A DNA stretch of 64,000 nucleotides from an uncultured Bacilli bacterium (GTDB lineage: Bacteria > Bacillota_I > Bacilli_A > RF39 > UBA660). The translations under genes and the position numbers were made by a program. Shown here in pieces: positions 9,952 to 32,246 of this stretch (its first letter is position 1; each line of letters begins with the position of its first letter). Where the stretch lies: the NCBI GenBank assembly GCA_934167465.1, contig CAKPKR010000001.1, positions 359,732-423,731 on the forward strand. Reading direction: 5' to 3'. The notes under the pieces are model-generated. The model ran no database searches. It saw only the letters and a program-made list of their open reading frames with translations, and had not been told where the DNA came from.

Positions 9952-9985
9952 CTCTTTTTATGTTATAATTTTGTTAGGTGATTAT

Positions 9986-10243
9986 ATGGAATATGATATT
10001 AATAAATTAGTAGAAGAAATAGATTTTGAAAAGAATATGCATAAGAGTATAAATAATATGTTATTAACTGAAAATCAAATAGATGTTTTAAATCGATATA
10101 ATATTGATTATAATAAGTGTAATTCAATGAGTGAATTATTATATTATATTGATGAGTGTTTAAATGAGATAGATGCTGAAGATTTAGAAAAAGTTTCTTT
10201 AGAAATAGCTGAAACAAATTATTATATGAATACAAATAAGTAG
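9986..10243 (+). CDS. Hypothetical small acidic protein
   Basis: AGGTGA ribosome-binding site before the ATG at 9986. Confidence 0.4.
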   Translation: MEYDINKLVEEIDFEKNMHKSINNMLLTENQIDVLNRYNIDYNKCNSMSELLYYIDECLNEIDAEDLEKVSLEIAETNYYMNTNK

Positions 10244-10251
10244 GTGATAAA

Positions 10252-12480: not shown

Positions 12481-12500
12481 AAAGTATTAGGAGGTTATTT

Positions 12501-12953: not shown

Positions 12954-13001
12954 AATGTTTTTACAAAGTAGATTAAATCTACTTTTTTTAGTATAATTAT
13001 T

Positions 13002-17212: not shown

Positions 17213-17641
17213 ATGTCAATTGTAAAACATACTACAGCAGAACGTGATTTACTAGCAAGATTAATGCGTGCTGAAGCTATAGGAGAAGGTAATTTAGGTA
17301 TGTTGATGGTTGGTAATGTTGGTGTTAACAGGACTATTGCTGATTGTTTAACTTTTAAGGATATTAGAAGTATTGAAGATATGATTTATCAAAATCCAGG
17401 TGGTTTTTCAGGAAAAGATAGTCCTTTATTTTTTAGTAATCCAACAACCGCAGAAAGAAATCTAGCTGATAGAGTACTTAATGGAGAATATTATTTTCCG
17501 GCAACTAATGCTTTATGGTTTTATGCGCCTAAAAAAGGTACTAGTTGTACTGCTACATGGTGGGGTCAGGAACTGTCTGGTAGATATAAAAATCATTGTT
17601 TTTATAAACCTAAGTCTGGTGCATGCAAAGAAGTATATTAA
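17213..17641 (+). CDS. SleB/CwlJ-like cell-wall hydrolase (Hydrolase_2 domain)
   Basis: ERDLLARLMRAEAIGEG...GNVGVNR resembles the SleB catalytic domain. Preceded by a conserved CATATATTAATATAGGTGAT motif. Confidence 0.6.
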   Translation: MSIVKHTTAERDLLARLMRAEAIGEGNLGMLMVGNVGVNRTIADCLTFKDIRSIEDMIYQNPGGFSGKDSPLFFSNPTTAERNLADRVLNGEYYFPATNALWFYAPKKGTSCTATWWGQELSGRYKNHCFYKPKSGACKEVY

Positions 17642-17667
17642 AACAAGAAGAGTTAATGCTTCTTGTT

Positions 17668-18600
17668 TTATATTTTTAATACTTGACCTATACTAAGTGT
17701 ATTAGATGTTAAATTGTTTTTTGCTTTGATTTCATTTACTGTTGTATTAAATTTTTTTGCAATACTATATAAACTGTCACCTTTTTGTACTGTATATGTG
17801 TTTGAACTAGTTATTGGTATTTTTAATATTTGACCAATAGATAATAAGTTAGATGATAGGTTATTTAATTTCATTATTTCGTTTTGGGTTGTATCATATT
17901 TTCTTGCAATGGCGTATAAATTATCACCTTTAACTACTGTATAAGTTGTATAATTATTGGTTGGTTGTGGTGTTATTTTTGCGGGTATTTTTAATACTTG
18001 ACCTACGGATAATAGATTTGAAGATAAGTTGTTTAATTTTTTTATTTCATCTACTGTTGTATTGTATTTATTAGCTATTTTATATAGACTATCTCCGCTT
18101 TTTACAATATATGTAGTTACACCTGATGGAGTAGGGGTTTCTGTTGTCTGTTGCGTAGGCAAAATGAGAATTTGACCTATGCTAAGAGCATTAGAGGTTA
18201 GGTTATTTATGTTTTTTAGTGTGTTTACATTTGTGTTGAATTTTTTAGCTATACTCCATAGGCTATCGCCTTTTTGGACGGTATAATAATTGTTTCCGAC
18301 TTTTTTTCCGGTATATTCGGCTACGGCATTAACTACGGCTTGAGCTAATTTCTCATAGTCATTTTTTAATTGATTTACATCATCAGCAGTACTATCAAGG
18401 AATCCATATTCGACTATTACTGGTTGTGTTTTTCCGGTATTTCTATGGATAAAATAATAATCTTTTGATGTATCTGATGGTAGTCTTCTTTGATATGCTT
18501 TTCTAACATTTTGACCAGCTGCTTCTAAACTGTTTAAAATTAAGTTTGCTAGAGTGTTGTTATTTCTTAATGCGTAAATTACTTCAGCACCATCGGCACC
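17668..18600 (-). CDS. 3' half of a split N-acetylmuramoyl-L-alanine amidase gene: C-terminal part of Amidase_3 plus three LysM repeats. It is interrupted at 18600/18601 by the integrated element
   Basis: The reverse-strand translation reads GADGAEVIYALRNN...VEYGFLDS... then three LysM units. There is no start codon, and an in-frame TGA sits immediately upstream at the element junction. Confidence 0.75.
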   Translation of the reverse strand, partial: GADGAEVIYALRNNNTLANLILNSLEAAGQNVRKAYQRRLPSDTSKDYYFIHRNTGKTQPVIVEYGFLDSTADDVNQLKNDYEKLAQAVVNAVAEYTGKKVGNNYYTVQKGDSLWSIAKKFNTNVNTLKNINNLTSNALSIGQILILPTQQTTETPTPSGVTTYIVKSGDSLYKIANKYNTTVDEIKKLNNLSSNLLSVGQVLKIPAKITPQPTNNYTTYTVVKGDNLYAIARKYDTTQNEIMKLNNLSSNLLSIGQILKIPITSSNTYTVQKGDSLYSIAKKFNTTVNEIKAKNNLTSNTLSIGQVLKI

Positions 18601-18621
18601 TCATGACGGCTCTAGTGGTTA

Positions 18622-18834
18622 TTAATTGTTATTATTAACCTTATTTTGTTGCTCCATAGCTTGCATCATTTGATATTTAGCAAGTATAGCACTTTTATTT
18701 TGTTCATGTTGAAGTTCTGCAGATAGTTTTAATAATTCCTTTGTAAAATCATTGAAGTTCCTACAATTATCAATCATTTTCTTTGTTAACTCTTTCCAGT
18801 TATTATCAATATTTATTGCTTGTTCTACTGTCAT
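18622..18834 (-). CDS. Hypothetical 70-aa coiled-coil protein at the left end of the element. Excisionase or directionality factor is a possibility
   Basis: Small ORF adjacent to attL and in the same orientation as the recombinase. Confidence 0.35.
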   Translation of the reverse strand: MTVEQAINIDNNWKELTKKMIDNCRNFNDFTKELLKLSAELQHEQNKSAILAKYQMMQAMEQQNKVNNNN

Positions 18835-18927
18835 GTCTATCTCTCCTTTCCTTATTTAATTATTATAAAACATTTCAATTATTAAATATTGCCAAATTTC
18901 TGCCATTTTTTTGTAATATTTTCGTAA

Positions 18928-19695
18928 TTATTTTAGTTCAACTTTTTCAAAAGTTTTAGATACAGTATATACATTTTTATTACCTACTTTTTCCTGTCTT
19001 CCTTTATATATTGTCAAATTATTACCTTTTATATTACAATCTAAAGTAATGTAATAATCATTATTTGAATATACTACAACTTTATCATTTCCTATAATAT
19101 TATAATTCCTAATTAGTTTTAATTGTGAATAAGTTCTACCACCATATAATAGTAATAACAAAATTATTAAAAATGGTAATGCTTTAAAATAGTTCTTAAT
19201 TTTAGCTTTTGCCTCATCATTATCTGTGATTTCATCTTTTTTAAAAAAGAAATATGAATAAATAAATTCTATTATGAGCAAGGCTATATTAAATATTGTA
19301 AAGCTAAAACAATCAACAAATTTAAAATAGACAACACTTAATATTATATTATAAAAGATTATTGTTAGTAATTCGCTGATTATTTTTCGATTCACTTTTT
19401 CTTTAAACTTTTTAGCTAAACTATTTGTACTAAATAAAATAGATAAAAATGCAACTAAAAATATAATTGACAAACATAATGAATAAATAAACCCTTGATC
19501 ATTAAATCTATATAATCCAATATTCAAGCCATAATACGAAAAATAATAACTAGCTGTGATATACTCAAAAAATCTTAAGATATATAATATTACAATACAT
19601 AAAGCCGAGCCGCATGCAATAAATAATTTATAATATTTATTAATTACTTCGATTGGTTTTTCAATTAATAATTCATCTTTATTAGTCTTTTTCAT
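18928..19695 (-). CDS. Hypothetical multi-pass membrane protein (255 aa)
   Basis: 5-6 hydrophobic helices and no conserved motifs. Confidence 0.45.
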   Translation of the reverse strand: MKKTNKDELLIEKPIEVINKYYKLFIACGSALCIVILYILRFFEYITASYYFSYYGLNIGLYRFNDQGFIYSLCLSIIFLVAFLSILFSTNSLAKKFKEKVNRKIISELLTIIFYNIILSVVYFKFVDCFSFTIFNIALLIIEFIYSYFFFKKDEITDNDEAKAKIKNYFKALPFLIILLLLLYGGRTYSQLKLIRNYNIIGNDKVVVYSNNDYYITLDCNIKGNNLTIYKGRQEKVGNKNVYTVSKTFEKVELK

Positions 19696-19728
19696 AAAAA
19701 TCCCCCTATCTAAAGTGTTTGCTATATA

Positions 19729-21408
19729 TTATAACATATTTTTATTACAATTAATCTTTTTTCCACATCTTCCGTAAGGATTTCTTATTGGATTCTTATC
19801 AACATATTTAAAAGTATAATCATCAAGTATTTTATATTTAAATTTAATTGTTATATTTCTATCTTCATCTGCTTCTATTCTATCTATTATGGTAAATAAT
19901 AAGTCTCTATTTGGTTTTTCTATATTTAATAATTCTTTTATCTTCTTCGTATAATTTGGTATTTTATTAGCACTATTTTTTCTTTTTAAAATTTCTAGTT
20001 CTATTTCTTCTAATTTATCTTTTAGATTTCCTATTTTTTCTTCATAAGGAGTTACTATCATTTTATATGATTCTAAAGAAATATTTCCATCAATTCTATC
20101 TTGATAAACAGTTTTAATATTAGAAGATAATTTTAAAATTTCTTTTGTTATATCTTTCTTTATTTTATCAAGTGATTTAGTACCTGAATTAGTTCTACTA
20201 ATTATTTCTTCATTTAATTCTTTAATACTTAATCCTTTAAATAAATCAGATAATAATTTGTTTAATTCTTCTAATACTTCTTCTTCAAAATAATCATATG
20301 GAAAGAAATGAGCCTTGCATCTACCTCTAATTGGGTCTCTAGCATATCTATTGCAGTTAATAGTCCAATAGTCATGATTCCTTCTATATATTACACCTAA
20401 TCTATTTCCACACTCTTTGCAATAGATTAATCCCTCTAATAATCTAGTAGGTCTTTTTGTTCTTACATCAACTTTTCGGTTATGATTATCTCTTTTCTTA
20501 TTAATTATTCTAAATGTCTCTTTATCTACTAATGGTTCATGAGTATTTTCAACTATTACCCATAAACTTTGATCTAGTGTTATTTTCTTTTTGGATTTAT
20601 AACTTATGTTAGTTTGAGTATGTTGTACCATATCACCTGTGTACATTCTATTTTCTAATATTTTTTTAACTGAATGTATTGTCCATACATTCTTTTCTTT
20701 TACTCTTGAAGATATTGGTAAATTTTTATAAGCACTTGGTGTTGGTGCTCCTAATTTAGTAAGACGAGTTGCTATTTCAGATATTCCTATATCATTTGCT
20801 TTCCATTCAAACATTTGCTTAACATAAGGTGCTGTATTAGGGTCTATAATTAGATGTCCTTTATCTTCTGGGTCTCTCATATAACCATAGCATGGTTTAC
20901 TACCTATAAATTTACCATCTTTTCTTTTTGCATCTAATACATTTCTTATTTTTAATGAGTTTTGTTTACTATAATAATCATTACAAGCAATAATGAATGT
21001 TGATGAATCATTACTTGCCTGATTTTTCATGCTATCATAGTTTTCAACAATGGATATAAATCTTACTTTATTTTCAGGAAAATAAGTTTCAATATAATAT
21101 CCAGTCATTACATGATCTCGACCTAATCTAGATAGATCTTTTACTACTACAAGATTAATCTTTTTATTTTTTATATCTTCAATCATTCTAATAAATCCAG
21201 GTCTATCAAAATTAGTTCCTGAATAACCATCATCTACATACTCATCTATTAAATTAAATCCATTTTTTAAACAATAGTCTCTTAATATTTCTTTTTGATT
21301 AGTAACACTTTCACTATCTGACTCATATTTTTTATCTTTATCTTCTTGAGAAAGTCTAATATAAATACCTGCATTATAACTTATATTTGTTAAGTAACTA
21401 TAATTCAT
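19729..21408 (-). CDS. Large serine recombinase: resolvase catalytic domain, recombinase domain and zinc ribbon
   Basis: N-terminal YIRLSQED...VVKDLSRLGRD resolvase motifs and a C-terminal Cys cluster (CKECGNR...CNRY...RCKAHF). 559 aa. Confidence 0.85.
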   Translation of the reverse strand: MNYSYLTNISYNAGIYIRLSQEDKDKKYESDSESVTNQKEILRDYCLKNGFNLIDEYVDDGYSGTNFDRPGFIRMIEDIKNKKINLVVVKDLSRLGRDHVMTGYYIETYFPENKVRFISIVENYDSMKNQASNDSSTFIIACNDYYSKQNSLKIRNVLDAKRKDGKFIGSKPCYGYMRDPEDKGHLIIDPNTAPYVKQMFEWKANDIGISEIATRLTKLGAPTPSAYKNLPISSRVKEKNVWTIHSVKKILENRMYTGDMVQHTQTNISYKSKKKITLDQSLWVIVENTHEPLVDKETFRIINKKRDNHNRKVDVRTKRPTRLLEGLIYCKECGNRLGVIYRRNHDYWTINCNRYARDPIRGRCKAHFFPYDYFEEEVLEELNKLLSDLFKGLSIKELNEEIISRTNSGTKSLDKIKKDITKEILKLSSNIKTVYQDRIDGNISLESYKMIVTPYEEKIGNLKDKLEEIELEILKRKNSANKIPNYTKKIKELLNIEKPNRDLLFTIIDRIEADEDRNITIKFKYKILDDYTFKYVDKNPIRNPYGRCGKKINCNKNML

Positions 21409-21700
21409 TTTCTACCTCCTCATTTTATAGCACTTAACTTTCTTCGAGACAAGTGCATCTTACCATGATATATAAAAATAAGCAAATCATTAGAATTATT
21501 TTTCTTCCATAATTTGCTTTAATAAATAATTTAAAACTAATTCTTTAAAAATTTCCTTTTTATCTTCTTTCATACTTAAATTTATGTCTACTATAAAGGG
21601 ATTATTCACTAGAATCACCATCCTTATATGGTTTAAGTAACTCTTCTAGTTCAGCTAATTCTTCATCTGTTAATGGAACTGATTCACATCTTTTACCATT

Positions 21701-22042
21701 CTAAGTTTCTACTCCGTCATAATCAACACCAATAACTGGACCATTAGTACTAATAAAATCATAATTTTCTATTTTGGTTACTGTTACATAATTGTGTATT
21801 GTTTTATTCTTATCAGAATAAGAATTTAAATATCCTTTTAAATATACATTTTTACCCAATAAAAAAAGACCTTTATTATTTTCATAAAGATCTTTATAAA
21901 CTCTTAAACTAGCATAAACTATATTACTATTTTCATTAGGTGAATACTTCTTACAAGTTAGTCCTAATGTAATATATCTATTATTAATTATAATATTATT
22001 TACCTCACCAGATAATAATATTTCATTATAAATCATAAACAA
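21701..22042 (-). CDS. OB-fold SSB-like protein. An in-frame TAG is followed by a 33-codon acidic tail
   Basis: Beta-rich 113 aa resembling SSB-type OB folds. Reading through the TAG would add ...PLTDEELAELEELLKPYKDGDSSE. Confidence 0.35.
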   Translation of the reverse strand: MFMIYNEILLSGEVNNIIINNRYITLGLTCKKYSPNENSNIVYASLRVYKDLYENNKGLFLLGKNVYLKGYLNSYSDKNKTIHNYVTVTKIENYDFISTNGPVIGVDYDGVET

Positions 22043-22148
22043 AACCCCCTGTTTAATTATATATATAATTTTTTATATATTAATTATCTTTTAATTTATT
22101 TATTATACATGCATATCTATTCATATAATTAATGCACAATACTGCATA

Positions 22149-22547
22149 TTATCCTGAATCATCTTGCATATTATTCACATATATTCTTCTTTGAATTAAA
22201 TCATCATTTTTAACTCTTTCAACATTAATATATCCTTTTTCTTTTAATCTCTTTAAAGAATAATTAATTGTTCTTATTTTAACAAAAGATAAATTAGATA
22301 ATATTTTATTAGTAGCAAAACAATAACCATTTAATCTACTAAGATTATAAATACTACCAAACAAAAAACAGTCTGATTTAGTCAAACTGTTATCTTTCAT
22401 TAATTCTCTTGGAATAATAATAAAATCTTTTTTCAAATATGATACTCTCCTTTCTATAAAATCCCAAAAACACCAATTTTTAATTGATATTTTTTTATCA
22501 GGATAAGACGATGGTACTGCAACACCAATTTTCCTAGGTAAAATCAA
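22149..22547 (-). CDS. Winged-helix DNA-binding protein, replication-initiator or DnaD-like
   Basis: C-terminal wHTH (LSNLSFVKIRTINYSLKRLKEKGYI). Lies next to iteron-like repeats. Confidence 0.4.
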   Translation of the reverse strand: MILPRKIGVAVPSSYPDKKISIKNWCFWDFIERRVSYLKKDFIIIPRELMKDNSLTKSDCFLFGSIYNLSRLNGYCFATNKILSNLSFVKIRTINYSLKRLKEKGYINVERVKNDDLIQRRIYVNNMQDDSG

Positions 22548-22718
22548 TGTTTATTATGGTACCAAACTTATTTTGCACTTGCAAAATTTATCCCATATAG
22601 GTAATTTATCTTTAATAAGACATCTAAAAATAGGCAAATAAAAAATCCCAATATATAAAATATTGAGATTTTGTTGGGATATTAACAAAAAGTAATACCA
22701 TCTTTTATTTAAACTATT

Positions 22719-22830
22719 TACCTACTATAGCAAATATATCAGAAATATTTTTATTATGCAAGTTTCATTTACTTTCCGTTTTTTTTCCTTTTTTTGTCAT
22801 ATTATTAACCTATTATAGCAACTTTATCAT
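22719..22830. repeat. Two imperfect 24-bp direct repeats, TTACCTACTATAGCAAATATATCA and TAACCTATTATAGCAACTTTATCA, 88 bp apart. Iteron-like
   Basis: 20 of 24 positions identical. They sit in an ORF-free AT-rich stretch beside the wHTH gene. Confidence 0.35.
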
Positions 22831-22999
22831 AAAAAAATTTATCTGTCCATTCGTTTTAAATGGTACTTTAACCATTACTTTAAAAGTAATTTATACTTCA
22901 CTTTATCTTGTTTTGACCTTTAAATTTAAAGAAATCTAACAATAGAAAAAGAACAAAAATATGAATCTTTTTTGAAAAATCACTAAAATTTTTTTAAAT

Positions 23000-23392
23000 T
23001 TATTTAATATCAATATTCCATAATCCTAATTTACCATTAATTACTTTGTCAGATTCTATCTTCTTAACATTCTTCAATTTCCATGCATAACCGGTTCTAA
23101 ATTTTGAACCATATGCAATATTTTTTTCATTGATAATTTGTTTATTCAATTCATCATCCAATTCTAAACAATCTTCTATTTCAACTTCTGCAACTATTCT
23201 TTTTGATGGGTATTTTAAATTTAAGTCTTTAAACCTATTCATTTCCTTTTTATCTACACCAGCACCAGCATGTATTAATATTTTACCCCTATAATTAGTT
23301 TTCCATGATCTGAATTCGTATTTTTTTATTCCTTCAGCCACTAAAGTTGCCCATGGTTGTTTCAATGTTAATATCTTCATATTTATCACCAA
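23000..23392 (-). CDS. ASCH-domain (PUA-like) protein
   Basis: LTLKQPWATLVAEGIKKYEFRSW... matches the ASCH fold signature. Confidence 0.6.
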   Translation of the reverse strand: MVINMKILTLKQPWATLVAEGIKKYEFRSWKTNYRGKILIHAGAGVDKKEMNRFKDLNLKYPSKRIVAEVEIEDCLELDDELNKQIINEKNIAYGSKFRTGYAWKLKNVKKIESDKVINGKLGLWNIDIK

Positions 23393-23469
23393 TATTATTT
23401 TATCACATTTATTAACCTAATTATTAAGAATTTTTGTTTAATATGTTATAATATATATGGAGGTATAGT

Positions 23470-24465
23470 ATGGTATTAGATAAAGTAATGTTTGATAAAT
23501 TACATTCATTTTCAGAAAACATTTGTCAAAATTTTAATATAAAAGAACCAAAAGATAGAAAATCACTTATTAAGTATCTTGATTCATTACAAAAAGGTAT
23601 TGATATTGGAGAAATAAACTCTTCATTTATTGGATTAATATTATATGATTTTGTTTCATCAGAAGAAACTCGTGATAGACATACAACTGCAAGAATATTT
23701 GAAGATATCTTTGGAGAATTAGTTGGTGAAAAAGCTACAGACACTTCATCAAGAGTTAATCCTCAAGTTCCAGATTATATTAAAGAATATGATAGTTTAT
23801 GTAATAATGTAGATTGGACGATTAGTCATGATTTAGCAGGTAATAAAAGGGAAAAGGCTGATCACAAAATTGATGAATATGAATTATCTATAAAAACATT
23901 AAAGGGTAAATTATATAATAATGATGGCAAAATCATTAATAGTGATTTTAATGATGAAATCAATATAGGTTCATTATCACATAGAGCCTTATTTATAGGA
24001 CTAACTGATAAAGCACTTAGCGATAGAAAAGGCGGTTTAGGTTCTCCAAGACAAACAATACCATTGCTTGAATCAATAAAAGAAAATAATAAATTTGATG
24101 AATTTAAAAGCAGAATAAACAATTATGTTAAATATGTATATAGTGATGACATTTTAATTGTTTATAAATGTGGGTATAAAATGAAAATAACTTTAATACC
24201 TGCAGAATCATTCGTTACCGCAATAACAAAAGCTCTTGATGACGAAAATGGTGGAATAAATTCATTTACAAAAATTTGGTACAGATGGGAAAATAATAAT
24301 TTAAGAATAAGATATACAGCATTAATGGACATGATAAGAAAGTTAAATTTAAATTATTATGACACTATATTAAATTTAGAAAATGTATTTGAAAACAAAG
24401 AATTTATAGATAATATGATTATCTTAGAAAAACTAATAGATCAAAAAATAGAAGATTTAATTTAA
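23470..24465 (+). CDS. Hypothetical 331-aa protein convergent with the C5-methyltransferase, overlapping it by 9 bp at the 3' ends. Putative type II restriction endonuclease
   Basis: Gene arrangement only. No confident nuclease motif could be read. Confidence 0.3.
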   Translation: MVLDKVMFDKLHSFSENICQNFNIKEPKDRKSLIKYLDSLQKGIDIGEINSSFIGLILYDFVSSEETRDRHTTARIFEDIFGELVGEKATDTSSRVNPQVPDYIKEYDSLCNNVDWTISHDLAGNKREKADHKIDEYELSIKTLKGKLYNNDGKIINSDFNDEINIGSLSHRALFIGLTDKALSDRKGGLGSPRQTIPLLESIKENNKFDEFKSRINNYVKYVYSDDILIVYKCGYKMKITLIPAESFVTAITKALDDENGGINSFTKIWYRWENNNLRIRYTALMDMIRKLNLNYYDTILNLENVFENKEFIDNMIILEKLIDQKIEDLI

Positions 24466-25590
24466 AAAATCTTCTATTTTTATTGGAAAAATTTTAGCTA
24501 TATTATATGCCATTAATACTGGAACAGCATTTCCTATCTGTCTATAACATGCAGAGGTACTTCCTAAAAATAAAAATGTATCTGGAAAAGATTGGATTCT
24601 TGCAACCTCTCTAACACTCATTCTTCTGTTATATTCAGGATGCGGAATAATTAAAGGCCCTCCAGTTCCACTACCTCTTCCCATAATAGTTGGAGAATGT
24701 TTATCCCAATATGTCGGTCTATTTCCAACCATATGTGATTTCTTTTGATTTAATTTACATTTAGACGAAGTATGATTTAATATTTCACAACCATCAACAT
24801 TGGTTTCTTCAGGTAATCCATAAATTGTATCTCTTAATGTTTGATATTGATATTTAATATTTGAATCAAAATAATCATTAATATTTAACTTTTTCTTATT
24901 ACATAACTTATTAAACATATCTGTAACAACTAAGTATGTATTTTGAGGCTGTTTAATATTACTATTCTTTGAATGAGTTTCTTTTACCAATAATCTCTTT
25001 TTAACTTTTTTTAAATCAACTGGTTTTTCCATGATAGGCATTTTAATTTTTTGAGCATAGTCATTTCTTACTCCAAATATTATTACTCTTTCACGATTTT
25101 GTGGAACTCCATAATTCAATGCATTTAATACATTATAATAAACAGTATATCCTTCACCAATAGATTCAATATCTTTGATAATCATTTCTAAGATTTTTCC
25201 TTTTTCCATGTTTTCTAATCCTTTAACATTTTCTAGTAATATAAATTTAGGATTTTTAATTTTAATCATTTTTAAAACTTGCAAATACAAGAAATTTCTT
25301 TCATCTTCCATACTTCTATTGATATTAGCTATTGAAAAACCTTGACAAGGGAATCCACCTATAACTATATCAGCATCTGGTATTTCTTTTTTTAATTTTT
25401 TTTCATCTTGATTTAAATATTCTAATATATCTCCTCTAACAACCTTGTGTTTATTAAATCTATTAAAATTTTCTTCATATGTATCAACTGCATAATCATC
25501 AAAATCATTTGCCCATACGATTTTGTGACCAGCTAAAGAAAATCCTAAGTCTAAACCACCAGCGCCAGAAAACATTGATATTACTTTCAT
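24457..25590 (-). CDS. dcm: DNA (cytosine-5)-methyltransferase
   Basis: Motif I (FSGAGGLDLGF), motif IV (GGFPCQGFSIAN), motif VI (ENVKGL) and C-terminal motifs IX/X (QIGNAVPV). Confidence 0.85.
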   Translation of the reverse strand: MKVISMFSGAGGLDLGFSLAGHKIVWANDFDDYAVDTYEENFNRFNKHKVVRGDILEYLNQDEKKLKKEIPDADIVIGGFPCQGFSIANINRSMEDERNFLYLQVLKMIKIKNPKFILLENVKGLENMEKGKILEMIIKDIESIGEGYTVYYNVLNALNYGVPQNRERVIIFGVRNDYAQKIKMPIMEKPVDLKKVKKRLLVKETHSKNSNIKQPQNTYLVVTDMFNKLCNKKKLNINDYFDSNIKYQYQTLRDTIYGLPEETNVDGCEILNHTSSKCKLNQKKSHMVGNRPTYWDKHSPTIMGRGSGTGGPLIIPHPEYNRRMSVREVARIQSFPDTFLFLGSTSACYRQIGNAVPVLMAYNIAKIFPIKIEDFLN

Positions 25591-25621
25591 TATTTATCAC
25601 TCCTAACTGATTGTTGCCTAA

Positions 25622-27844
25622 TTATTTTAAATCTATTTCTTCTTCGGCTTTATTATACAATTCAATTTTATTCTCAACATCAACTTTTGTAACAAGCCAT
25701 TTTCTTAGAGAACACATTCTTACAAAATCATCAATTCTATTTATTCCATTGATCTCTTTTAATGTAATTACAATTCCAAACTTTATTCCTTCACCATCTC
25801 TTTTTTCTAATCGCTCTTTAGTCTTAATGCTTATTCCCCATAATTCATTTGAATATTTCTTTTTAGGTCTGGAACCATCTTTTAATATTTCGATTATATG
25901 TTTTACATTATCCCATTTTCTGTAATTTTTTCGTGCATTTCCTTCATACATATAGTGGCCTTCTTCGGTTTGATAGTTATTGTTTATTGTTTTTATATGA
26001 CCTCTATCATCAATTCTACCAAATGATAAATCCAGCTCAGTATTAGTATAATCTACACCTTGATTTCTTGAACAATTTGGAAAATAGCATAATGTTGCCT
26101 TAGAGATAAATGGATATTTATCATTATGTAATGGAACAGGAATATCATATGTATATGTATCATATTTTTCAGAAATTCCTTCAATAACAAATTTAATTTC
26201 ATCATCTTTTGAATTAATAATATCTTCTATTCTCTTTGGAACGACACCATACCCTAATAATGGTGCCTGTTTTTGATTAATAGTTTCTTTCCAATTTGTG
26301 GCAGAATCAATTATTAATGCTTTGGCAACTTCTCTACTTAAGCCTAAAATATCAATCAAATATGACATTTTTCTTGAAATCCATGGAGCAGCAAATGATG
26401 TTCCTGCTAATAGGCATTCTCCACAAGAATTACAAGCCTTAATATAATCGTTTTTGTCTCCACCATAATAGCAAATATCAGGTTTATTAAAAAACGACAA
26501 TACTAATCCTTTTCTAGAATATGAAGCTGATTTTCCTTTTGAATCAACTGAATTAACAACCAATGCATTTATCGAATCTGCAGGAGCGCCAATCATCTCA
26601 ACACTTTCTTTTTGCTTATTAGTCCCTGCAATTACAAATATAACATTATTTTCATATTGAATTTTATCTAAAATTGCCGCTTCGGGTGATATAAAGTTTG
26701 GATTGATTTCTAGTGCCGAACCAAGCGATAAATTCCATACTCTAATATCCTTATTGGTTTTTACTATTTCTTTTATGTGTCTTAATATCGCAAACGAACT
26801 CATTTGCTTAGAAAGTGCAACACCAAAATGTCTAACTTTAAATCTACCACATCCATCATCTAGTTCAGGATTAATATTTGGACCATCTACTATAATTGAA
26901 GATACTGCTGTACCATGATCCATATCCTGTGAGGATGTTTCTATATCATCTGAAATCATTTTATGATACTCAACCCAATTAGAAAAATAGCATCTAGTAT
27001 CAAATAATGTATCAATTACTCCAATTGTTGGTTCATTGGTTGGATTTGGTAATTTAGGTAATGTATCATCATCTAATGTAATAAAATCATCTTTTGATAG
27101 TTCTGAGATATCACTTAAAGTCATGGCAATTAGATATGGTGCCTTCATTTTTAATAATTCCAATTGGTCTGGTGTTAATAATACCGTAGAATCTTCCTCG
27201 ATAATTCTTTGAGTCAAAATATCTATACCCAATTTATCCATGATTTCTTTTATATTATCATCAGTCTTATATAAAGTAACTAATGCATTGTCACTAATAA
27301 TATCACTATTATCTGGCAAATCAAACTTTTCTGCATAATATGCATCTACAATTATTTGATTGAAAGCTGATTTAGAAAGTCCAATGCTTGTCAAATATTT
27401 AGATAATGCATCTATATTATCTAATTTTTTTTGTGAAACTACACCAGACATTTTTTCTTTTACACACTTAATAACTAAATCTAATTTACTAATAGATGTA
27501 TTTAATGAATCCAAATGTATATAATGTGTAATAATATGTTTTGGATTTTTTTTATCAGTAAATTTTGCACCTACTATTGTGTTATTTGTAACCTTACCAG
27601 ATTCATGGAGAATTGCAGATATTCTATTACTCTTTGCAATTACATCGATATAATACACACTAATTAGTGCACCTTTAACAACAGTTTGTGTACTCCAAAA
27701 ACCATATAATTTTTTTAGTTGAGATAATAAAGTTTCTAAATGCTCGACTAGCACAATTGAACTACCTGGAAGTGTAGCAGGTCCCGGAGTTGAATTATTA
27801 GATCTTTGATGAAATTGTCCTTTTAATTGCAATAAATTATTCAT
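25622..27844 (-). CDS. Subtilisin-like S8 serine peptidase (740 aa) with unknown N- and C-terminal extensions. Candidate IetS-like component
   Basis: The D/H/S triad is readable: GVIDTLFD, DHGTAVSSII, GTSFAAPWIS. It begins 1 nt after the stop of the upstream AAA ATPase gene and is co-directional with it, with a 3-nt gap. Confidence 0.7.
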   Translation of the reverse strand: MNNLLQLKGQFHQRSNNSTPGPATLPGSSIVLVEHLETLLSQLKKLYGFWSTQTVVKGALISVYYIDVIAKSNRISAILHESGKVTNNTIVGAKFTDKKNPKHIITHYIHLDSLNTSISKLDLVIKCVKEKMSGVVSQKKLDNIDALSKYLTSIGLSKSAFNQIIVDAYYAEKFDLPDNSDIISDNALVTLYKTDDNIKEIMDKLGIDILTQRIIEEDSTVLLTPDQLELLKMKAPYLIAMTLSDISELSKDDFITLDDDTLPKLPNPTNEPTIGVIDTLFDTRCYFSNWVEYHKMISDDIETSSQDMDHGTAVSSIIVDGPNINPELDDGCGRFKVRHFGVALSKQMSSFAILRHIKEIVKTNKDIRVWNLSLGSALEINPNFISPEAAILDKIQYENNVIFVIAGTNKQKESVEMIGAPADSINALVVNSVDSKGKSASYSRKGLVLSFFNKPDICYYGGDKNDYIKACNSCGECLLAGTSFAAPWISRKMSYLIDILGLSREVAKALIIDSATNWKETINQKQAPLLGYGVVPKRIEDIINSKDDEIKFVIEGISEKYDTYTYDIPVPLHNDKYPFISKATLCYFPNCSRNQGVDYTNTELDLSFGRIDDRGHIKTINNNYQTEEGHYMYEGNARKNYRKWDNVKHIIEILKDGSRPKKKYSNELWGISIKTKERLEKRDGEGIKFGIVITLKEINGINRIDDFVRMCSLRKWLVTKVDVENKIELYNKAEEEIDLK

Positions 27845-27847
27845 ATT

Positions 27848-28900
27848 CTAATCTCTCCATTCTCTAGAAACCTGACTTTTAGAAATCCCAGTAATTATTT
27901 CAATTTCTCTAACAGTAAATCCTAGTTTTTGTAAATCTTTTAACTGCAATTTTTTATCTTTATTTATTTTCCTATATAATGTTTTTAAATAATCTAATTC
28001 ACAATCAGGATTACTAAAAGCAATGGATGTTTTAATTAAATTTCTCAAATCTCCAGGGTATGGAATTGGTTCCATTAAATTAATTATCTTTTTAAATAGT
28101 TTTATATTTCTTCCAGCATTTTTAAATTTTAAAAGCATTTCATTTAAGATATACTCTGAAACTTCCAATAAATCTTCTCTTGAATAATTGTTAAAATTAA
28201 TTATAGAATCAAATCTTCTTATTAATGCCTTATCAAATGAAGAAAATAAATTAGTTGTAGCAATAAATAAAATATTATCATTTAATTGATCTAATTCTTT
28301 TAAAATCGTTGAAGTTGCTCTTCCCATTTCTCTAATATCATTATCATTCATTCTGTCTAATGCTATAGCATCTATTTCATCAAAAAGTATTATCACCTTT
28401 TCAGGATGAGGCATCTTTTTTATTTCGTAGAACAATTCCGTAATATTCTTAGCAGTTTGTCCTAATTTGCTATCAACAACCATACTAAAATCCACAGAAA
28501 AAATATCCCTTTCAAGTATCCTTGATAATTGCCTTACAGTCTCTGTCTTGCCAGTGCCCGGAGCACCTTCAAATAAAAATTTATTTACCCCTACATTGTG
28601 TTTAACAGCATGAATTAATCCGATAATATCATCTTTTATGCTTTCAGGTAATGGAAATGGTTCTTTACTTGGAGATAGTTTTTTAAAAAAAACTAAGTCA
28701 GATTTTTCAATTTGGGGTACAAATGTATTTACATCAGATAGAAGTGCAAGTATATATTCTGATAATTCAACATCACCAGTTTTATCAAAGTATTTTGCAA
28801 TTTCATATGCTTCATTTCTAAAATATTCATCATTATTTTCTGTATGATATTTAATTAAATTTAATATATTCTTCTTCTTCATATTATCACCTATATTCAT
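27848..28900 (-). CDS. AAA+ ATPase with a C-terminal HTH. Candidate IetA-like component
   Basis: Walker A (GAPGTGKTE), Walker B (ILFDEID), arginine finger (IRRFD) and a C-terminal HTH (GFTVREIEIITGISKSQVSR). AGGTGAT ribosome-binding site before the ATG. Confidence 0.7.
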   Translation of the reverse strand: MNIGDNMKKKNILNLIKYHTENNDEYFRNEAYEIAKYFDKTGDVELSEYILALLSDVNTFVPQIEKSDLVFFKKLSPSKEPFPLPESIKDDIIGLIHAVKHNVGVNKFLFEGAPGTGKTETVRQLSRILERDIFSVDFSMVVDSKLGQTAKNITELFYEIKKMPHPEKVIILFDEIDAIALDRMNDNDIREMGRATSTILKELDQLNDNILFIATTNLFSSFDKALIRRFDSIINFNNYSREDLLEVSEYILNEMLLKFKNAGRNIKLFKKIINLMEPIPYPGDLRNLIKTSIAFSNPDCELDYLKTLYRKINKDKKLQLKDLQKLGFTVREIEIITGISKSQVSREWRD

Positions 28901-28907
28901 TATATAT

Positions 28908-28940
28908 TATTTGGGACACTTTTTCAATATTTGGGACATA
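28908..28940 (-). promoter_or_regulatory. Two direct repeats, TGTCCCAAATA x2 on the gene strand, 21 bp apart, 22-52 nt upstream of the AAA ATPase start. Putative operator
   Basis: Exact 10-11 bp direct repeats in the 160-bp stretch between the element's right end and the operon start. Confidence 0.4.
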
Positions 28941-29060
28941 CTTTTTATTTTTTATTTTTGATAAAATGTAAAGTAAATAAAAAGATAACTTATTTTTTAT
29001 ATAAATCGTCTTTAAAATCTTATTTTTCTCGAAGAAAGTTAATTTACCACTAGGGTTAAC

Positions 29061-29327
29061 ACCACCTCCTGCATTTATGTGATTTGATATTACAATTACA
29101 TTGTCGCTATTTCCATATGAATTTAAAATTCTATTAACCCTCTCAGTTGGATCAATAGTTTCATCCTCTGATCTAACTAAAGTAACTGGAATACCTAATT
29201 TCATAAATTGATCGTACATATATTTTGAGATTTTTAAAGTTAAATCTTTTTCAATTATTCCATTTCCACTCGCACCAGGATCTTCTCCTCCATGACCAGC
29301 ATCTATTACAATTTTATAGTTATTCAT
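29061..29327 (-). CDS. 5' half of the split N-acetylmuramoyl-L-alanine amidase gene: the first 89 aa of the Amidase_3 domain
   Basis: AGGAGG ribosome-binding site then ATG. MNNYKIVIDAGHGGEDPGA...NHINAGGG. After 29061 the frame runs on into element sequence, so the 28887-29456 ORF in the track is chimeric. Confidence 0.75.
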
Positions 29328-29403
29328 ACATATTCCTCCTAGAATTATTTTATGATATATATAGGGATGTGTTATTAAATTAGGATATTTTTGATTAATA
29401 AAA

Positions 29404-29443
29404 AAACAAATTGTATGTATAGTACAATTTGAATTCTTTTGAA
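29404..29443 (-). terminator. Rho-independent terminator (CAAATTGTA-N7-TACAATTTG followed by T7) for the upstream minus-strand gene
   Basis: 9-bp perfect inverted repeat plus T-run on the minus strand. Confidence 0.6.
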
Positions 29444-29445
29444 AA

Positions 29446-30636
29446 TCACCATTCAATAAATCTTTCCCAAGTTTCAGTTACAGAACTAGAAACACAATCA
29501 AAATAACTATCCAATTGTTTACTTATTAATTTTGCCTTTTCATTTATGGGATTTCCATTTGTATAATAGTCTTTTTTCAGTGATCTAAACATCATATCGG
29601 CAAATATTACGGCTCTATCTTCTTTATAATTTGACTTACTATAAGATGATAAAAAATAAGCAGGATTTGAAAAATAATATACATATTCATTATCCTGATT
29701 TCCGTATGCAAATCCATCTGGATTTAATTGATTCATACTATTTTCTAATTCAGTTGCACCAACTATATTTGCTAAATAACAATCTATATAGTGCATTATT
29801 TCATGATGAAGAGTACTTTCAAATAATAAGCCATCTGTATTAATAAGAATTATTACAGTATTATAATTATTATTGTCAGTTAATCCAGCTGCATAATTAT
29901 TTATATTTTCTACTAAATAAATTGTAAGTTGTTTCCATTTGTTTTTAATTTCATAGAAGAAACTACTTGGATATTTATTCAAGGCGTTATTGATTGATAC
30001 TAATGATTGGTAAATTTTTGCGTCATCATATTGTTTAGTTGGAGTTGCATAGGAATTAACATAATTCCCGTCGATCTCATCCTTATAGCCAACTGAAACG
30101 CCATATTTATTCTTTATTTCATTTCTTAATTGATTATTTGTTATCTCTTGGGAACTTTGACTAGGCATATTTTCATTATTTTGGCTATTATTTTCTTTGT
30201 CAGAATTTGTGTTTTTATTATTGTCATTTGTTTCTTTGTTAGAATCTACATTTTTTTTATTATCATCAATTTTCCCATTAGAATTTTTATTTTCTTTTTT
30301 ATCACTTTTTTTAGCGATACTATTTTGTTCATCATTCGTATTATTATTTACATCATTTATACTATCAATATCATTTTCATTGGTGTTATTATCTTGGATA
30401 TCTGTGATTTCTTCTTTTTTATTACCTTCGGTATCATCTTTTTTTTCATTTGAACTATTACTATTAGATGTATTTTTTAAATCTTTTTTTTCATTTTTTA
30501 AGCTATATGAATTATGTTTTTCATCACTTTTATTTAATATAGTGCATTTCCCAATTATTACAATTATTAAAAAAGATATTAACACTAAAAATATTTTTTC
30601 TTTTTTATTAAATTTCATATTAAAACTCCTATACAA
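29446..30636 (-). CDS. Secreted or membrane-anchored protein with an N/D/K-rich low-complexity region and a C-terminal HExxH (HHEIMH) putative zinc-metallopeptidase domain
   Basis: Signal/anchor (IFLVLISFLIIVIIG), a long N/K/D/E-rich linker and a single HEIMH motif in the folded C-terminal domain. Confidence 0.45.
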   Translation of the reverse strand: MYRSFNMKFNKKEKIFLVLISFLIIVIIGKCTILNKSDEKHNSYSLKNEKKDLKNTSNSNSSNEKKDDTEGNKKEEITDIQDNNTNENDIDSINDVNNNTNDEQNSIAKKSDKKENKNSNGKIDDNKKNVDSNKETNDNNKNTNSDKENNSQNNENMPSQSSQEITNNQLRNEIKNKYGVSVGYKDEIDGNYVNSYATPTKQYDDAKIYQSLVSINNALNKYPSSFFYEIKNKWKQLTIYLVENINNYAAGLTDNNNYNTVIILINTDGLLFESTLHHEIMHYIDCYLANIVGATELENSMNQLNPDGFAYGNQDNEYVYYFSNPAYFLSSYSKSNYKEDRAVIFADMMFRSLKKDYYTNGNPINEKAKLISKQLDSYFDCVSSSVTETWERFIEW

Positions 30637-30722: not shown

Positions 30723-31316
30723 TTACTCATGAATTTTTTTAATAGTTAAATTGACACCAGTTATAACAACATTTGATGTACCACTGTCACCTAAAATATC
30801 AGCTCCAACTTCCAAAACGGTTAATTTTTCAAATCGAAATACTATATTTTGAGAAAAACTCATTTGTTTTCCACTATTAGGTTCTAATTTAAAAGTTAAA
30901 TCTTTAAGAGCAGATCCTTCACTATTTTGAAGATAGAATGTCGCACCATGTGTTTCATCTGCTTGTTCAATTAATCCAGAAAATGTTATTTCATAAATAC
31001 CAGGTTGAACCTCTATTTCTGTATCATTTAATATTGAAAAATATTCAGATTCATTTGGAATAAGCCAAGAATCATTAATCGACATTTTTTCAGATGTGCT
31101 TGTATCGATAAAGCTGGAAAATAATAACCCTTCATTAGATGAAATTGCAATAGGCCCGGTTGGACCTATTTGTCCTTGTGCTCCTTGATCACCATTAGGT
31201 CCTTGTAATCCTTGTGGTCCAGTTGGCCCAATAAGTGTGCAACCAAAACCTAATTTTAATAATTTATTTCTTAATTTTGCATTTTCCTCTAATTCTTTAA
31301 ATTTTTGTGAAGACAT
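30723..31316 (-). CDS. Collagen-like (GXX repeat) protein with a BclA-like C-terminal domain. Putative exosporium glycoprotein
   Basis: GPTGPQGLQGPNGDQGAQGQIGPTGP triple-helix repeats followed by a beta-rich C-terminal domain. Confidence 0.6.
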   Translation of the reverse strand: MSSQKFKELEENAKLRNKLLKLGFGCTLIGPTGPQGLQGPNGDQGAQGQIGPTGPIAISSNEGLLFSSFIDTSTSEKMSINDSWLIPNESEYFSILNDTEIEVQPGIYEITFSGLIEQADETHGATFYLQNSEGSALKDLTFKLEPNSGKQMSFSQNIVFRFEKLTVLEVGADILGDSGTSNVVITGVNLTIKKIHE

Positions 31317-31392: not shown

Positions 31393-32040
31393 CTACGCTG
31401 CTTTTATCTTTTCGATATATGCATTAATTTTACTAGCCCATGCTGTACTTTCTGCATATTTTGGATTTATTGTTTCAGGTGTAGTTAAACCAATTGCATA
31501 ATAATTATAATATAGGTTCTCTAAGAAAGAATTAATTCCTTCCTCCATAGAACTAAAAGCTCTATAAGAACCTCCCCAACATCCTGGTCCGCCTTTTTGG
31601 CCTCCAACATTATAACATTGGTTAACTAACTCACTACAATTCCATGAACATCCTGTTTCATGAAGAACAATTGCTACTGCTAAATAAGGATCTAATCCTA
31701 ATTCAATAGATTTGGAAGCAAATAAGTTTCCATATCCAGAAATTGTAGAATTTAATGATCTATTTAATTTATCACTTAATTCATCTAATGTTAAACCATC
31801 ATATACTATTTCAGGTTCACTTATTTCAGGTTGAGTTTCGTTTTCGTTCATATTTGTTTCAGAAATAAGCGGTGCAGTTGAACTGTCAATTAGATTGTCG
31901 GCTAATAATAATTGATCATTAGTTAAACTTTCTTTCTTTTCATAGCAGTATTTTGTCAAAACCGTAAATCCTATTAAACACATTAAGACTATAATTGAAG
32001 AAACAATTTTAGCCTTCTGGTCATTTTTCAAAATTTTCAC
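31393..32040 (-). CDS. Membrane-anchored glucosaminidase-like (FlgJ-type) cell-wall hydrolase
   Basis: An N-terminal transmembrane segment. LAVAIVLHETGCSWNCS resembles the glucosaminidase domain core. Confidence 0.45.
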   Translation of the reverse strand: MKILKNDQKAKIVSSIIVLMCLIGFTVLTKYCYEKKESLTNDQLLLADNLIDSSTAPLISETNMNENETQPEISEPEIVYDGLTLDELSDKLNRSLNSTISGYGNLFASKSIELGLDPYLAVAIVLHETGCSWNCSELVNQCYNVGGQKGGPGCWGGSYRAFSSMEEGINSFLENLYYNYYAIGLTTPETINPKYAESTAWASKINAYIEKIKAA

Positions 32041-32172: not shown

Positions 32173-32246
32173 AGGGGTATAGTTCAATGGTAGAATAACG
32201 GTCTCCAAAACCGCTGATGTGGGTTCAACTCCTGCTACCCCTGCCA
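32173..32246 (+). tRNA. trnW: tRNA-Trp (anticodon CCA)
   Basis: Hand-folded cloverleaf: 7-bp acceptor AGGGGTA/TACCCCT, anticodon loop CTCCAAA, T-loop TTCAACT and an encoded CCA end. Confidence 0.8.

Follow-up and report, generated by a model that had tools for sequence, protein, structure and literature searches.

The founding toxin-antitoxin/plasmid-stability system of this kind is IetA/IetS of the Agrobacterium Ti plasmid pTiC58 (Yamamoto et al. 2009, cited in both PMC8562856 and PMC13069673). It pairs a protease toxin with an AAA-ATPase antitoxin on a mobile replicon, as is predicted for the locus described here. Between 40 and 89 kb of NC_003065, the annotation lists no S8 gene. In the IetAS family, the toxin IetS is counteracted by the antitoxin IetA, defence requires the protease, and the mechanism against phage is reported as unknown (PMC13069673). 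IetAS is routinely listed in defence-system surveys. The ietAS genes of Bacillus cereus m1293, a Bacillota system that was cloned with its native promoter, act in B. subtilis by abortive infection, for which SPbeta yosG is the trigger (bioRxiv 10.1101/2022.08.27.505566).

A validated toxin-antitoxin pair, TA132/133 (A132/T133, 353/757 aa), is known from Mycoplasma mycoides subsp. capri, where neutralisation of the protease toxicity by the ATPase was found experimentally (PMC8562856). This pair, for which no HTH or operator is described (PMC8562856), resembles the present one in its nearly identical sizes and gene order and in its low-GC Mollicute host, the likeness being one of size, order and host. 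As judged by the comparisons below, the locus is a known kind of system (IetAS) that carries a putative regulatory feature.

Family assignment and gene structure

The window, i.e. the whole 64-kb stretch of DNA analysed here, includes two genes (Table 1) that had been read from the letters as an ietAS-like pair, and this identity was borne out at the family level by PADLOC IetA and IetS profiles, Pfam and the top NCBIfam matches. The PADLOC profile PDLC02196 matched IetA over nearly its full length (2.8e-35, residues 9-346 against profile positions 4-366 of 374), and three more PADLOC IetA profiles also matched. IetS was matched by PDLC02197 (4.8e-64, residues 247-728 against positions 234-748 of 749), which covers the S8 and C-terminal domains and leaves the N-terminal 246 aa uncovered, as well as by several other PADLOC IetS profiles. 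Matches to both profiles, adjacency, a common direction, the ATPase in first place, and intact motifs and triad together agree with the PADLOC/DefenseFinder-type definition of IetAS.

The best NCBIfam matches were IteA_antiphage for IetA and IteS_antiphage for IetS, with scores of 99.1 and 153.2 bits against equivalog cut-offs of 510 and 900 bits, respectively. As these scores are far below the cut-offs, the pair does not belong to the same orthogroup as the NCBI IteA/IteS. Alignment with the NCBI-named pair using hhalign gave probabilities of 99.6% and 99.2%. The extra domains of both proteins, suspected at first to be non-canonical, proved to be so only in part: the IetS C-domain and the HTH-like end of IetA align, the latter with the C-terminus of the NCBI-type IteA, whereas no alignment was obtained for the first ~260 aa of IetS and the first ~100 aa of IetA, although their similar lengths leave room for a shared fold. 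On sequence grounds the pair belongs to a divergent clade of IetAS that differs from the E. coli-type system named IteA/IteS by NCBI.

The plasmid pair of Dongshaea marina, an example of IteA_antiphage (NF042959) and IteS_antiphage (NF042956), likewise has the ATPase gene upstream of the S8 protease gene (363/759 aa versus 344/740 aa here) and, like the pair here, is plasmid- or island-borne. At only ~25% identity, the AAA core, lid and C-terminal HTH-like helix of its IteA align with IetA (111-351 versus 101-339 here), as do the S8 domain and the whole C-terminal domain of its IteS with IetS (253-757 versus 262-726 here).

Table 1. Coordinates of the features of the ietAS locus and its host island.
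Feature	Position	Strand	Description	Basis
ietA	27848..28882	-	AAA+ ATPase, 344 aa; predicted antitoxin and autorepressor	
HTH-like segment of IetA	27854..27943	-	C-terminal, residues ~314-343 (...GFTVREIEIITGISKSQVSRE...)	AF2, alignment
ietS	25622..27844	-	S8 subtilase, 740 aa; predicted toxin/effector	
Promoter-like site	28899..28927	-	sigma-70 type; TTGAAA (28927-28922), 17-nt spacer, TATAAT (28904-28899)	scan
Putative operator copy A	28928..28938	-	TGTCCCAAATA, directly 5' of the -35 box	exact copy
Putative operator copy B	28908..28918	-	TGTCCCAAATA, in the -35/-10 spacer, 20 nt downstream of copy A	exact copy
Methyltransferase gene	24457..25590	-	C5 cytosine DNA methyltransferase	Pfam DNA_methylase 3.2e-83; TIGR00675
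331-aa ORF	23470..24465	+	convergent with the methyltransferase gene, 9-nt overlap at its 3' end	
Large serine recombinase gene	19729..21408	-	recombinase of the island	Pfam Resolvase 3.6e-24, Recombinase 2.7e-21, Zn_ribbon_recom 4.5e-10
Integrated island	18597..29060	-	~10.46 kb, ietAS at the attL edge	split amidase frames, junction alignments
attL and attR			attL ...GCAGGAGGTGGT/GTTAACCCTAGTGG...; attR ...CCACTAGAGCCGTCATGAGGTG/CCGATGGTGC... (junction at the slash); shared core ~AGGTG	junction alignments
Amidase 5' fragment	29061..29326	-	interrupted Amidase_3/LysM gene, ends ...SNHINAGGG	translation, Pfam
Amidase 3' fragment	17668..18600	-	interrupted amidase gene, starts GADGAEVIYAL..., then 4 LysM repeats	translation; LysM x4, 9.9e-70

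Two minus-strand genes in the same direction and 3 nt apart had been predicted (27848..28900 and 25622..27844), and this arrangement was confirmed except for the length of the ietA product, which is 344 and not 350 aa. The ATG at 28900 shares bases with the -10 box, MKKKN is the N-terminus in all 43 IetA homologues of a 44-sequence alignment, and gene callers give 344 aa on identical contigs; hence, the start was assigned to 28882, where it is preceded by the RBS AGGTGA. The junction between the genes reads TAG-AAT-ATG and the ietS RBS (GGAGAG) sits inside the 3' end of ietA, an arrangement consistent with translational coupling.

Domain organisation of IetA and IetS

Pfam AAA (PF00004) matched IetA with 9.8e-27 at residues 109-237 (numbering of the 350-aa ORF from the ATG at 28900). 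The expected Walker A/B motifs and arginine residues are present and invariant in the 44-sequence alignment, which includes (344-aa numbering) the Walker A GPGTGKT with K112, Walker B D168 and E169, sensor-1 N211, and R222/R223. The AF2 model of IetA (pLDDT 82) predicts that a 3-helix bundle at the N-terminus is followed by a classic-clade AAA core and a lid, and that three short helices form an HTH-like tri-helix at the C-terminus. The top Foldseek matches were Rpt, FtsH, Vps4 and Rix7. By eye, the N-terminal helical region (first ~95 aa) looks related to that of the B. cereus m1293 IetA (LFIAFSKQDNEEFYRIAEEF vs LIKYHTENNDEYFRNEAYEI). The pore-loop position reads K-L-G here and Y-L-G in the Dongshaea IteA, the single NCBI-type sequence compared, and a processive role of IetA as an unfoldase is doubtful because the K-L-G loop carries no aromatic residue. 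At the C-terminus, sub-threshold Pfam matches were solely to HTH families (HTH_23, HTH_7, HTH_28, MarR_2 and HTH_5; E 0.03-0.2), and the HTH-like helix SKSQV(S/A)R (SKSQVSR here) is nearly invariant throughout the clade.

Pfam Peptidase_S8 (PF00082) matched IetS at residues 271-520 (4.5e-34). The S8 catalytic triad is complete, as predicted, with D278, H310 and S483 intact and, together with the oxyanion N409, invariant among 48 IetS sequences. The N- and C-domains proposed to flank the S8 core appear as distinct parts of the AF2 model (pLDDT 75), in which residues 1-245 form an N-domain that a disordered linker (246-261) joins to the S8 domain (~270-545), with a beta-rich C-domain (~548-720) after it. 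For the N-domain no relatives were detectable, and neither a signal peptide nor a pro-domain family was detected in IetS. Subtilases of the KP-43/Tk-SP type also combine an S8 domain with a C-terminal beta-jelly-roll; they are, however, secreted degradative enzymes with classical pro-peptides, whereas IetS has a 245-aa N-domain without known fold relatives and a dedicated ATPase partner.

Promoter and paired repeat upstream of ietA

In a 12-kb scan (17500-29600), the best promoter-like site was TTGAAA-17-TATAAT (11/12), and a consensus built from 66 divergent loci has its -35 and -10 boxes at the same positions. The predicted ietA leader is only ~10 nt, which counts against the reading given below.

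The two direct repeats TGTCCCAAATA that the original prediction placed in the ietA promoter region are exact copies (Table 1), and the consensus of the repeat in the clade is tTGTCCCAAat. The count of the 11-mer by itself is non-significant (3 matches at ≤1 mismatch versus 1.9 expected). The paired form, GTCCC-N15/16-GTCCC, has a single occurrence in the window and none in 100 shuffles, and its background is one true match in ~1.9 Mb (1.89 Mb). It brackets the -35 box and is exact in 71 of 76 clade loci and one base off in the other five; an exact pair lies within 160 nt of the ietA start in 69 of the 76 and further upstream in two more. Across the clade, the direct GTCCCAA repeats are spaced by 20-21 nt.

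In more distant IetAS clades the HTH helix and the repeat sequence change together. Macrococcus has the helix SISTLSR and the repeat TTTTTCATTA twice at 20 nt, and Dongshaea has a different helix and TCTTCAA in place of GTCCCAA, twice at the same 20-nt spacing. The repeat upstream of the Agrobacterium pAt pair, which is ~24% identical, is inverted and not direct. The upstream DNA of the B. cereus m1293 ietAS lacks the GTCCC pair, and that system thus represents another clade.

The repeated candidate operator sites overlap the promoter of the operon, as in autoregulation of the type II toxin-antitoxin style. Since the paired repeat and the predicted HTH helix are conserved throughout the clade, a putative autorepression by IetA of its own operon via the paired repeats is well supported by comparison. 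No description of a paired operator throughout an IetAS clade was found in the literature consulted.

The GTCCCAA pair could instead be an activator or recruitment site, with IetA acting as an enhancer-binding AAA+ protein, or a site for a host factor. AAA+ proteins with a C-terminal HTH do include transcription activators, such as those of the NtrC type, and copy A just upstream of the -35 box is in a position used by some activators. However, the AAA core of IetA is of the classic clade (Rpt/FtsH/Vps4-like) and not of the sigma-54 activator clade, copy B inside the spacer is in a typical repressor position, and the promoter is of a near-consensus sigma-70 type and should therefore need no activation. 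A host factor is unlikely because the repeats are conserved from Patescibacteria to Campylobacterota. We consider the activator or host-factor reading very improbable and retain autorepression.

Distribution, host island and proposed role

Relatives with 52-62% identity were found in at least 590 species of many phyla, with clade members in Listeria, Enterococcus, Staphylococcus, Clostridium, Mollicutes (frequent hosts), Campylobacterota, Patescibacteria and others, and with plasmid copies in Clostridium perfringens, Carnobacterium and Macrococcus. In 78 of the 80 sampled loci/species, ietA is directly upstream of ietS, the other two being cut by contig ends, and the gap between the genes is 3-20 nt across the clade. 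The 80 loci share no conserved flanking synteny, 36 of them having no flanking ORF in common with any other locus, and the neighbours that do recur are recombinases and genes of defence type. The module is a very widespread, horizontally mobile clade, the pair moving among plasmids, islands and chromosomes. The original prediction had named a housekeeping family in conserved synteny as the finding that would speak against it; the 80 loci, with plasmid copies common, gave the opposite picture.

A housekeeping protease with a chaperone ATPase, for instance a sporulation or germination subtilase and a SpoVK-like ATPase present in the island by chance, might be suggested by the host, a spore former in which SleB-like and BclA-like genes are found nearby, and by sources that call IetA homologues 'SpoVK/Ycf46/Vps4 family'. 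However, NCBIfam spore_V_K gave 37.9 bits against a cut-off of 423, the Csp matches of IetS, in which no signal peptide or pro-domain family was detected, rank below generic subtilases, and the pair occurs on plasmids and islands and in non-sporulating lineages, including lactobacilli as well as the Mollicutes, Campylobacterota and Patescibacteria. Such a role is extremely unlikely and is effectively refuted by the distribution.

The claim that the pair is carried on a mobile element was substantiated, and the boundaries of the island could be defined precisely. It interrupts an amidase gene, the 5' fragment of which matches Pfam Amidase_3 only over positions 1-108 of the 174-position profile. 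At 96-98% identity, this island is present in three different amidase neighbourhoods; copies of the identical cassette lie within three amidase genes, and one lies in a phage-like context. The empty site of the same amidase gene was not recovered. The three domains of the recombinase, the short-core att junctions and the differing target copies are those of a large-serine-recombinase element; the serine recombinase would move the island, with a conserved motif in amidase genes as the target.

The C5 methyltransferase gene has an RBS of its own and begins 31 nt past the ietS stop, and a terminator scan found no terminator between the two genes. The 331-aa ORF has no match in Pfam, NCBIfam or PADLOC and always accompanies the methyltransferase in loci L001-L005 and L009-L011; we regard its product as a candidate restriction endonuclease from a family not yet described. 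The host element can thus be viewed as a compact defence cargo island that combines IetAS with an RM cassette.

The linkage to the RM cassette here, and to HsdR-like or TIR-like genes elsewhere, is typical of defence islands and argues against a module that is mainly an addiction system, stabilising the island or plasmid by post-segregational killing, with an anti-phage effect that is incidental or absent in the clade. In relatives, abortive infection does give protection from phage (bioRxiv 10.1101/2022.08.27.505566; PMC13069673). In favour of addiction, the earliest description of IetAS was of a toxin-antitoxin system for plasmid stability, as cited in PMC13069673 and PMC8562856, the clade is common on plasmids beside partition or replication genes, the pair is located at the edge of a predicted excisable island, and antitoxin-type autoregulation suits classic toxin-antitoxin logic. 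The two roles are compatible. Addiction as the main function is unlikely, though less so than the activator and housekeeping readings.

The best joint explanation, which we regard as probable, is an IetAS-family module with IetS as toxin/effector and IetA as ATPase-dependent neutraliser and autorepressor, acting in abortive infection and/or island stabilisation. We infer the anti-phage role and the toxicity of the pair from homologues at ~25% identity. IetS would be an intracellular S8 subtilase and IetA its neutralising partner, which would spend ATP keeping it inactive. IetA would bind both repeats via its putative C-terminal HTH, probably as adjacent head-to-tail protomers, and when bound would occlude the -35 box and the spacer and repress its own operon, like type II antitoxins. 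A phage cue or loss of the element would remove the control by IetA, and proteolysis by IetS would then arrest or kill the cell, resulting in abortive infection and/or post-segregational stabilisation of the island.

NCBI gives members of the clade no more than the labels 'S8 family peptidase' and 'AAA family ATPase'. The operator and the HTH would provide a sequence signature for finding such modules, and they hint at a role of the ATPase beyond that of a chaperone. We lean slightly towards the joint view that IetA is a DNA-binding AAA+ protein whose HTH recognises two GTCCCAA sites two helical turns apart around the -35 box, that the cassette of promoter, operator, HTH and toxin travels across at least eight phyla, and that distant clades keep the layout. 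If this is true, DNA binding may help to hold off or release the system beyond the control of expression, e.g. by a trigger-induced release of IetA from DNA that is coupled to the release of IetS, and would give the first mechanistic handle on a defence family for which the anti-phage mechanism is reported as unknown.

Assignment and distribution of the ATPase-subtilase pair

The two co-directional, minus-strand genes of the original prediction were both recovered as described, 3 nt apart, with the GGAGAG Shine-Dalgarno sequence of ietS lying inside the 3' end of ietA. Pfam AAA (PF00004) matched IetA (9.8e-27), and the Walker A Lys, the Walker B D-E, the sensor-1 Asn and two Arg residues were invariant in an alignment of 44 IetA-like sequences. 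Peptidase_S8 (PF00082) matched residues 271-520 of IetS (4.5e-34), and the Asp/His/Ser triad and oxyanion Asn were invariant in 48 IetS-like sequences, as expected of the proposed 740-aa protein with a complete S8 triad. IetS begins with a sequence, MNNLLQLKG, that is nearly invariant across phyla. The AAA+ character of the first product was likewise borne out, but its length of 350 aa was not. The ATG at 28900 and the -10 box of the region's best-scoring promoter-like site overlap, all 43 aligned IetA homologues start with MKKKN, and gene callers give IetA 344 aa on identical contigs; the start was therefore placed at 28882.

The best match of the ATPase was the PADLOC IetA profile (2.8e-35, near full length) and that of the subtilase the IetS profile (4.8e-64, residue 247 to end), in agreement with the predicted ietAS-like system. 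The best NCBIfam matches were the equivalog models IteA_antiphage and IteS_antiphage, and their curated cut-offs were not reached (99 vs 510 bits for IetA, 153 vs 900 bits for IetS). Profiles were compared with those of IteA and IteS, so named by NCBI, of a Dongshaea plasmid. IteS is homologous to IetS throughout its S8 and C-terminal domains (262-726 vs 253-757, 99.6% probability), and IteA to IetA in the AAA core, lid and C-terminal HTH-like segment (101-339 vs 111-351). The first ~260 aa of IetS and ~100 aa of IetA could not be aligned, though similar in length. Hence, the suggestion that the extra domains differ from canonical ones holds for the N-terminal parts of both proteins but not for the C-domain of IetS or the HTH-like end of IetA. 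Given the profile matches, sub-cut-off scores and partial alignment, the pair is, by sequence comparison, a true IetAS-family module from a divergent clade rather than orthologous to the system named by NCBI.

Among other members of the family, no annotated S8 gene was found in the 40-89 kb stretch of NC_003065 (pTiC58, the founder system), the B. cereus m1293 ietAS sequence deposited in the supplement comprises the first 500 nt, and an M. mycoides protein was absent from the named top 120 matches of a protein search with the Mollicute member as query, made to place the Mycoplasma TA132/133 pair.

Protein searches returned thousands of full-length homologues (52-77% identity), and at least 590 species carried a relative in a scan of genomes, with hosts in Bacillota, Mollicutes, Campylobacterota, Patescibacteria, Bacteroidota, Actinomycetota, Spirochaetota, Elusimicrobiota and others. 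Of the 80 loci retrieved, 78 have ietA 5-20 nt ahead of ietS, and the remaining two end at a contig edge. No flanking ORF was common with any other locus in 36 of the 80, and the only recurrent neighbours were serine recombinases, an HsdR-like ORF and a TIR-like ORF, labels that are a reading of N-terminal sequence motifs rather than of a family search. Copies occur on plasmids of C. perfringens, Carnobacterium and Macrococcus. Phage carriage is rare, with close relatives on only two unannotated faecal virome contigs of the phage collection. A housekeeping protease-chaperone family, which had been put forward as the refuting alternative, is itself refuted by this wide distribution, the lack of conserved synteny and the plasmid copies. 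The ietAS locus is of a known family, its clade is divergent yet very common, and its carrier island is well defined.

The carrier island and its companion genes

The Amidase_3 ORF upstream of ietA ends its profile match at position 108 of 174, and the rest of the gene (GADGAEV... and four LysM repeats) lies 10.5 kb off on the same strand. On contigs from other samples that encode an IetS-identical protein, Amidase_3/LysM genes in two further neighbourhoods (L001-L003 and L004) are split by this island (96-98% identical). Alignment of the junctions gave attL as ...GCAGGAGGTGG(T/C) joined to GTTAACC... and attR as ...CCACTAGAGCCGTCA..AGGTG joined to (C/G)CGA.GGTGC.... The limits of the island could be set from the contrast between its conserved ends and the variable host flanks. 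The insertion point falls in the codons of a conserved motif, between ...NAGGG and (G)DGAEV.... The proposal that ietAS is carried by a mobile element is thus substantiated by the att junctions and by the occurrence of the island in other amidase genes. The island could be a 'skin'-like intervening element, excised to restore the amidase gene.

Features of the window around the ietAS island, with island genes numbered from the amidase 5' fragment
Feature	Position	Strand	Details
Split Amidase_3 + 4xLysM gene	29061-29326 and 17668-18600	minus	profile break and LysM matches
Island	~18597-29060		
Promoter repeat, copy A	28928..28938	minus	
Promoter repeat, copy B	28908..28918	minus	
ietA, longest reading (gene 1)	27848..28900	minus	350 aa; ORF listing
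ietA, assigned start (gene 1)	27848..28882	minus	344 aa
IetA pore-loop-1	~28454-28474		residues 137-143
ietS (gene 2)	25622..27844	minus	740 aa; ORF listing
ietS-methyltransferase intergenic segment	25591-25621		31 nt
C5 methyltransferase (gene 3)			after ietS
ORF331 (gene 4)	23470-24465	plus	convergent
ASCH protein (gene 5)			
HTH_36 protein (gene 6) with 113-aa ORF (gene 7)	21701-22547		
Large serine recombinase (gene 8)			
Membrane protein (gene 9)			
SleB-like hydrolase	17213-17641		neighbour of island
Collagen-repeat protein	30723-31316		neighbour of island
Glucosaminidase	31393-32040		neighbour of island
tRNA gene	32173-32243		
16S rRNA gene, bacterial, complete	62258-63839		

The neighbours of the island are spore/cell-wall genes. 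The GC content of the window is ~24% outside the rRNA, and among genome records that carry the island, the closest are MAGs of human and rabbit gut origin with the label 'uncultured Bacilli bacterium'. The HTH_36 protein is DnaD/replication-organiser-like, and the 113-aa ORF beside it, which has no Pfam or NCBIfam family, has by eye the look of an SSB-type OB-fold. Together they hint at a replication module, and the island may replicate after excision.

The C5 methyltransferase (MTase) gene has its own RBS, AGGAGTGA, and no terminator-like site was found in its junction with ietS; on this arrangement, ietA, ietS and the MTase gene may form one transcript. ORF331 overlaps the MTase gene by 9 nt and has no match in Pfam, NCBIfam or PADLOC. 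In related loci it is always found with the MTase, and it may be a type II restriction endonuclease from a family not yet described. A fourth context, L005, holds only the four-gene core of ietA, ietS, MTase and ORF331 (91% identical), beside genes for Bro-N, XhlA and an uninterrupted amidase; the four genes also travel as a unit into an element other than the island. An integral role of the restriction-modification cassette in IetAS was rejected, since the two occur together only in this island family and in L005. In L005 (1380-1520), similarity to the window starts only ~10 nt inside the left end of the island (GTGGTAAA...), and the sequence upstream of that start resembles the attL arm; L005 and the island may be related elements that have related att arms. 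Its remainder (7000-14700) is phage-like, with Bro-N, XhlA and the intact Amidase_3/LysM gene, which may be an endolysin.

Paired repeats at the ietA promoter

The two direct repeats reported in the promoter region are exact copies of TGTCCCAAATA around a TTGAAA-17-TATAAT promoter, copy A abutting the -35 box and copy B lying inside the -35/-10 spacer. The count of 11-mer repeats was by itself not significant in the single 64-kb window, where the paired motif occurs once (0 of 100 shuffles). Chance was rejected on comparative data. The upstream DNA is otherwise unalignable across the 80 loci, yet the paired element recurs clade-wide: GTCCC-N15/16-GTCCC was found within 160 nt of the ietA start in 69 of the 76 loci with enough upstream sequence, at a repeat spacing of 20 nt (43 loci) or 21 nt (26 loci), and only a single match lay outside these sites in 1.89 Mb. 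Among the seven apparent misses, the exact pair lies at a greater distance upstream in two, and the other five carry a one-base difference. The clade consensus is tTGTCCCAAat.TTGa.ttTtTGTCCCaaat....TATAAT. A role as recombinase att site was also rejected, as the repeats lie ~125 nt inside the element and are kept in loci without this recombinase.

In the loci examined for the repeats, the C-terminal helix of IetA, SKSQV(S/A)R, hardly varies. In distant clades, represented by one example each, helix and repeat change together while the layout persists. A Macrococcus plasmid has the helix SISTLSR and two copies of TTTTTCATTA at 20 nt upstream of ietA, and the Dongshaea plasmid a different helix and two copies of TCTTCAA, also at 20 nt. 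C-terminal helices that differ again accompany an inverted AAATAACTAT/ATAGTTATTT pair in Agrobacterium pAt and inverted GTCCC ~60 nt apart in an E. durans plasmid. Since the cis element is kept from Patescibacteria to Campylobacterota, its reader must be cassette-encoded, and we infer from these sequences that the putative reader is the HTH-like segment of IetA, the only candidate in the cassette. As the repeats overlie the -35 box and spacer of a promoter close to consensus, a role in repression is favoured. This clade-wide pairing of a putative operator with an HTH-like segment, of which no description was found in the literature consulted, is what the present analysis adds.

Predicted structures and proposed control of IetS

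The predicted structure of IetA (pLDDT 82) comprises a three-helix N-terminal bundle, an AAA core of the classic clade, a lid and three short C-terminal helices (314-343). The best structural matches of the core were proteasomal Rpt subunits, FtsH, Vps4 and Rix7. Pfam matches of the C-terminal 38 residues were sub-threshold, every one being to an HTH family. Pore-loop-1, D-S-K-L-G-Q-T, is clade-invariant and has no usual aromatic residue; in Dongshaea IteA, the single NCBI-type sequence compared, the aligned position reads S-Y-L-G-S-T vs K-L-G in IetA. In the IetS prediction (pLDDT 75), an alpha/beta N-domain (1-245) is joined by a disordered linker to the S8 core, which is followed by a beta-rich C-domain. 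The N-domain has no sequence relatives in Pfam or PDB, though there is a hint of a tail-sheath-like fold, and a search for solved structures of IetS found none.

IetS has been described as the toxin and IetA as the antitoxin, with IetS protease activity needed for defence, ietA mutants that could not be constructed, and an anti-phage mechanism reported as unknown (PMC13069673). The B. cereus system works through abortive infection, with SPbeta yosG as its trigger (bioRxiv 10.1101/2022.08.27.505566), and toxin-antitoxin function has been validated for a Mycoplasma pair whose sizes are almost the same (PMC8562856). Both the observation and the interpretation in the original prediction were essentially correct. 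In the proposed mechanism, IetA would autorepress the operon via the paired operator and would keep IetS inactive in an ATP-dependent manner. IetA control would then be lost on a phage cue or when the element is lost, which would free the protease.
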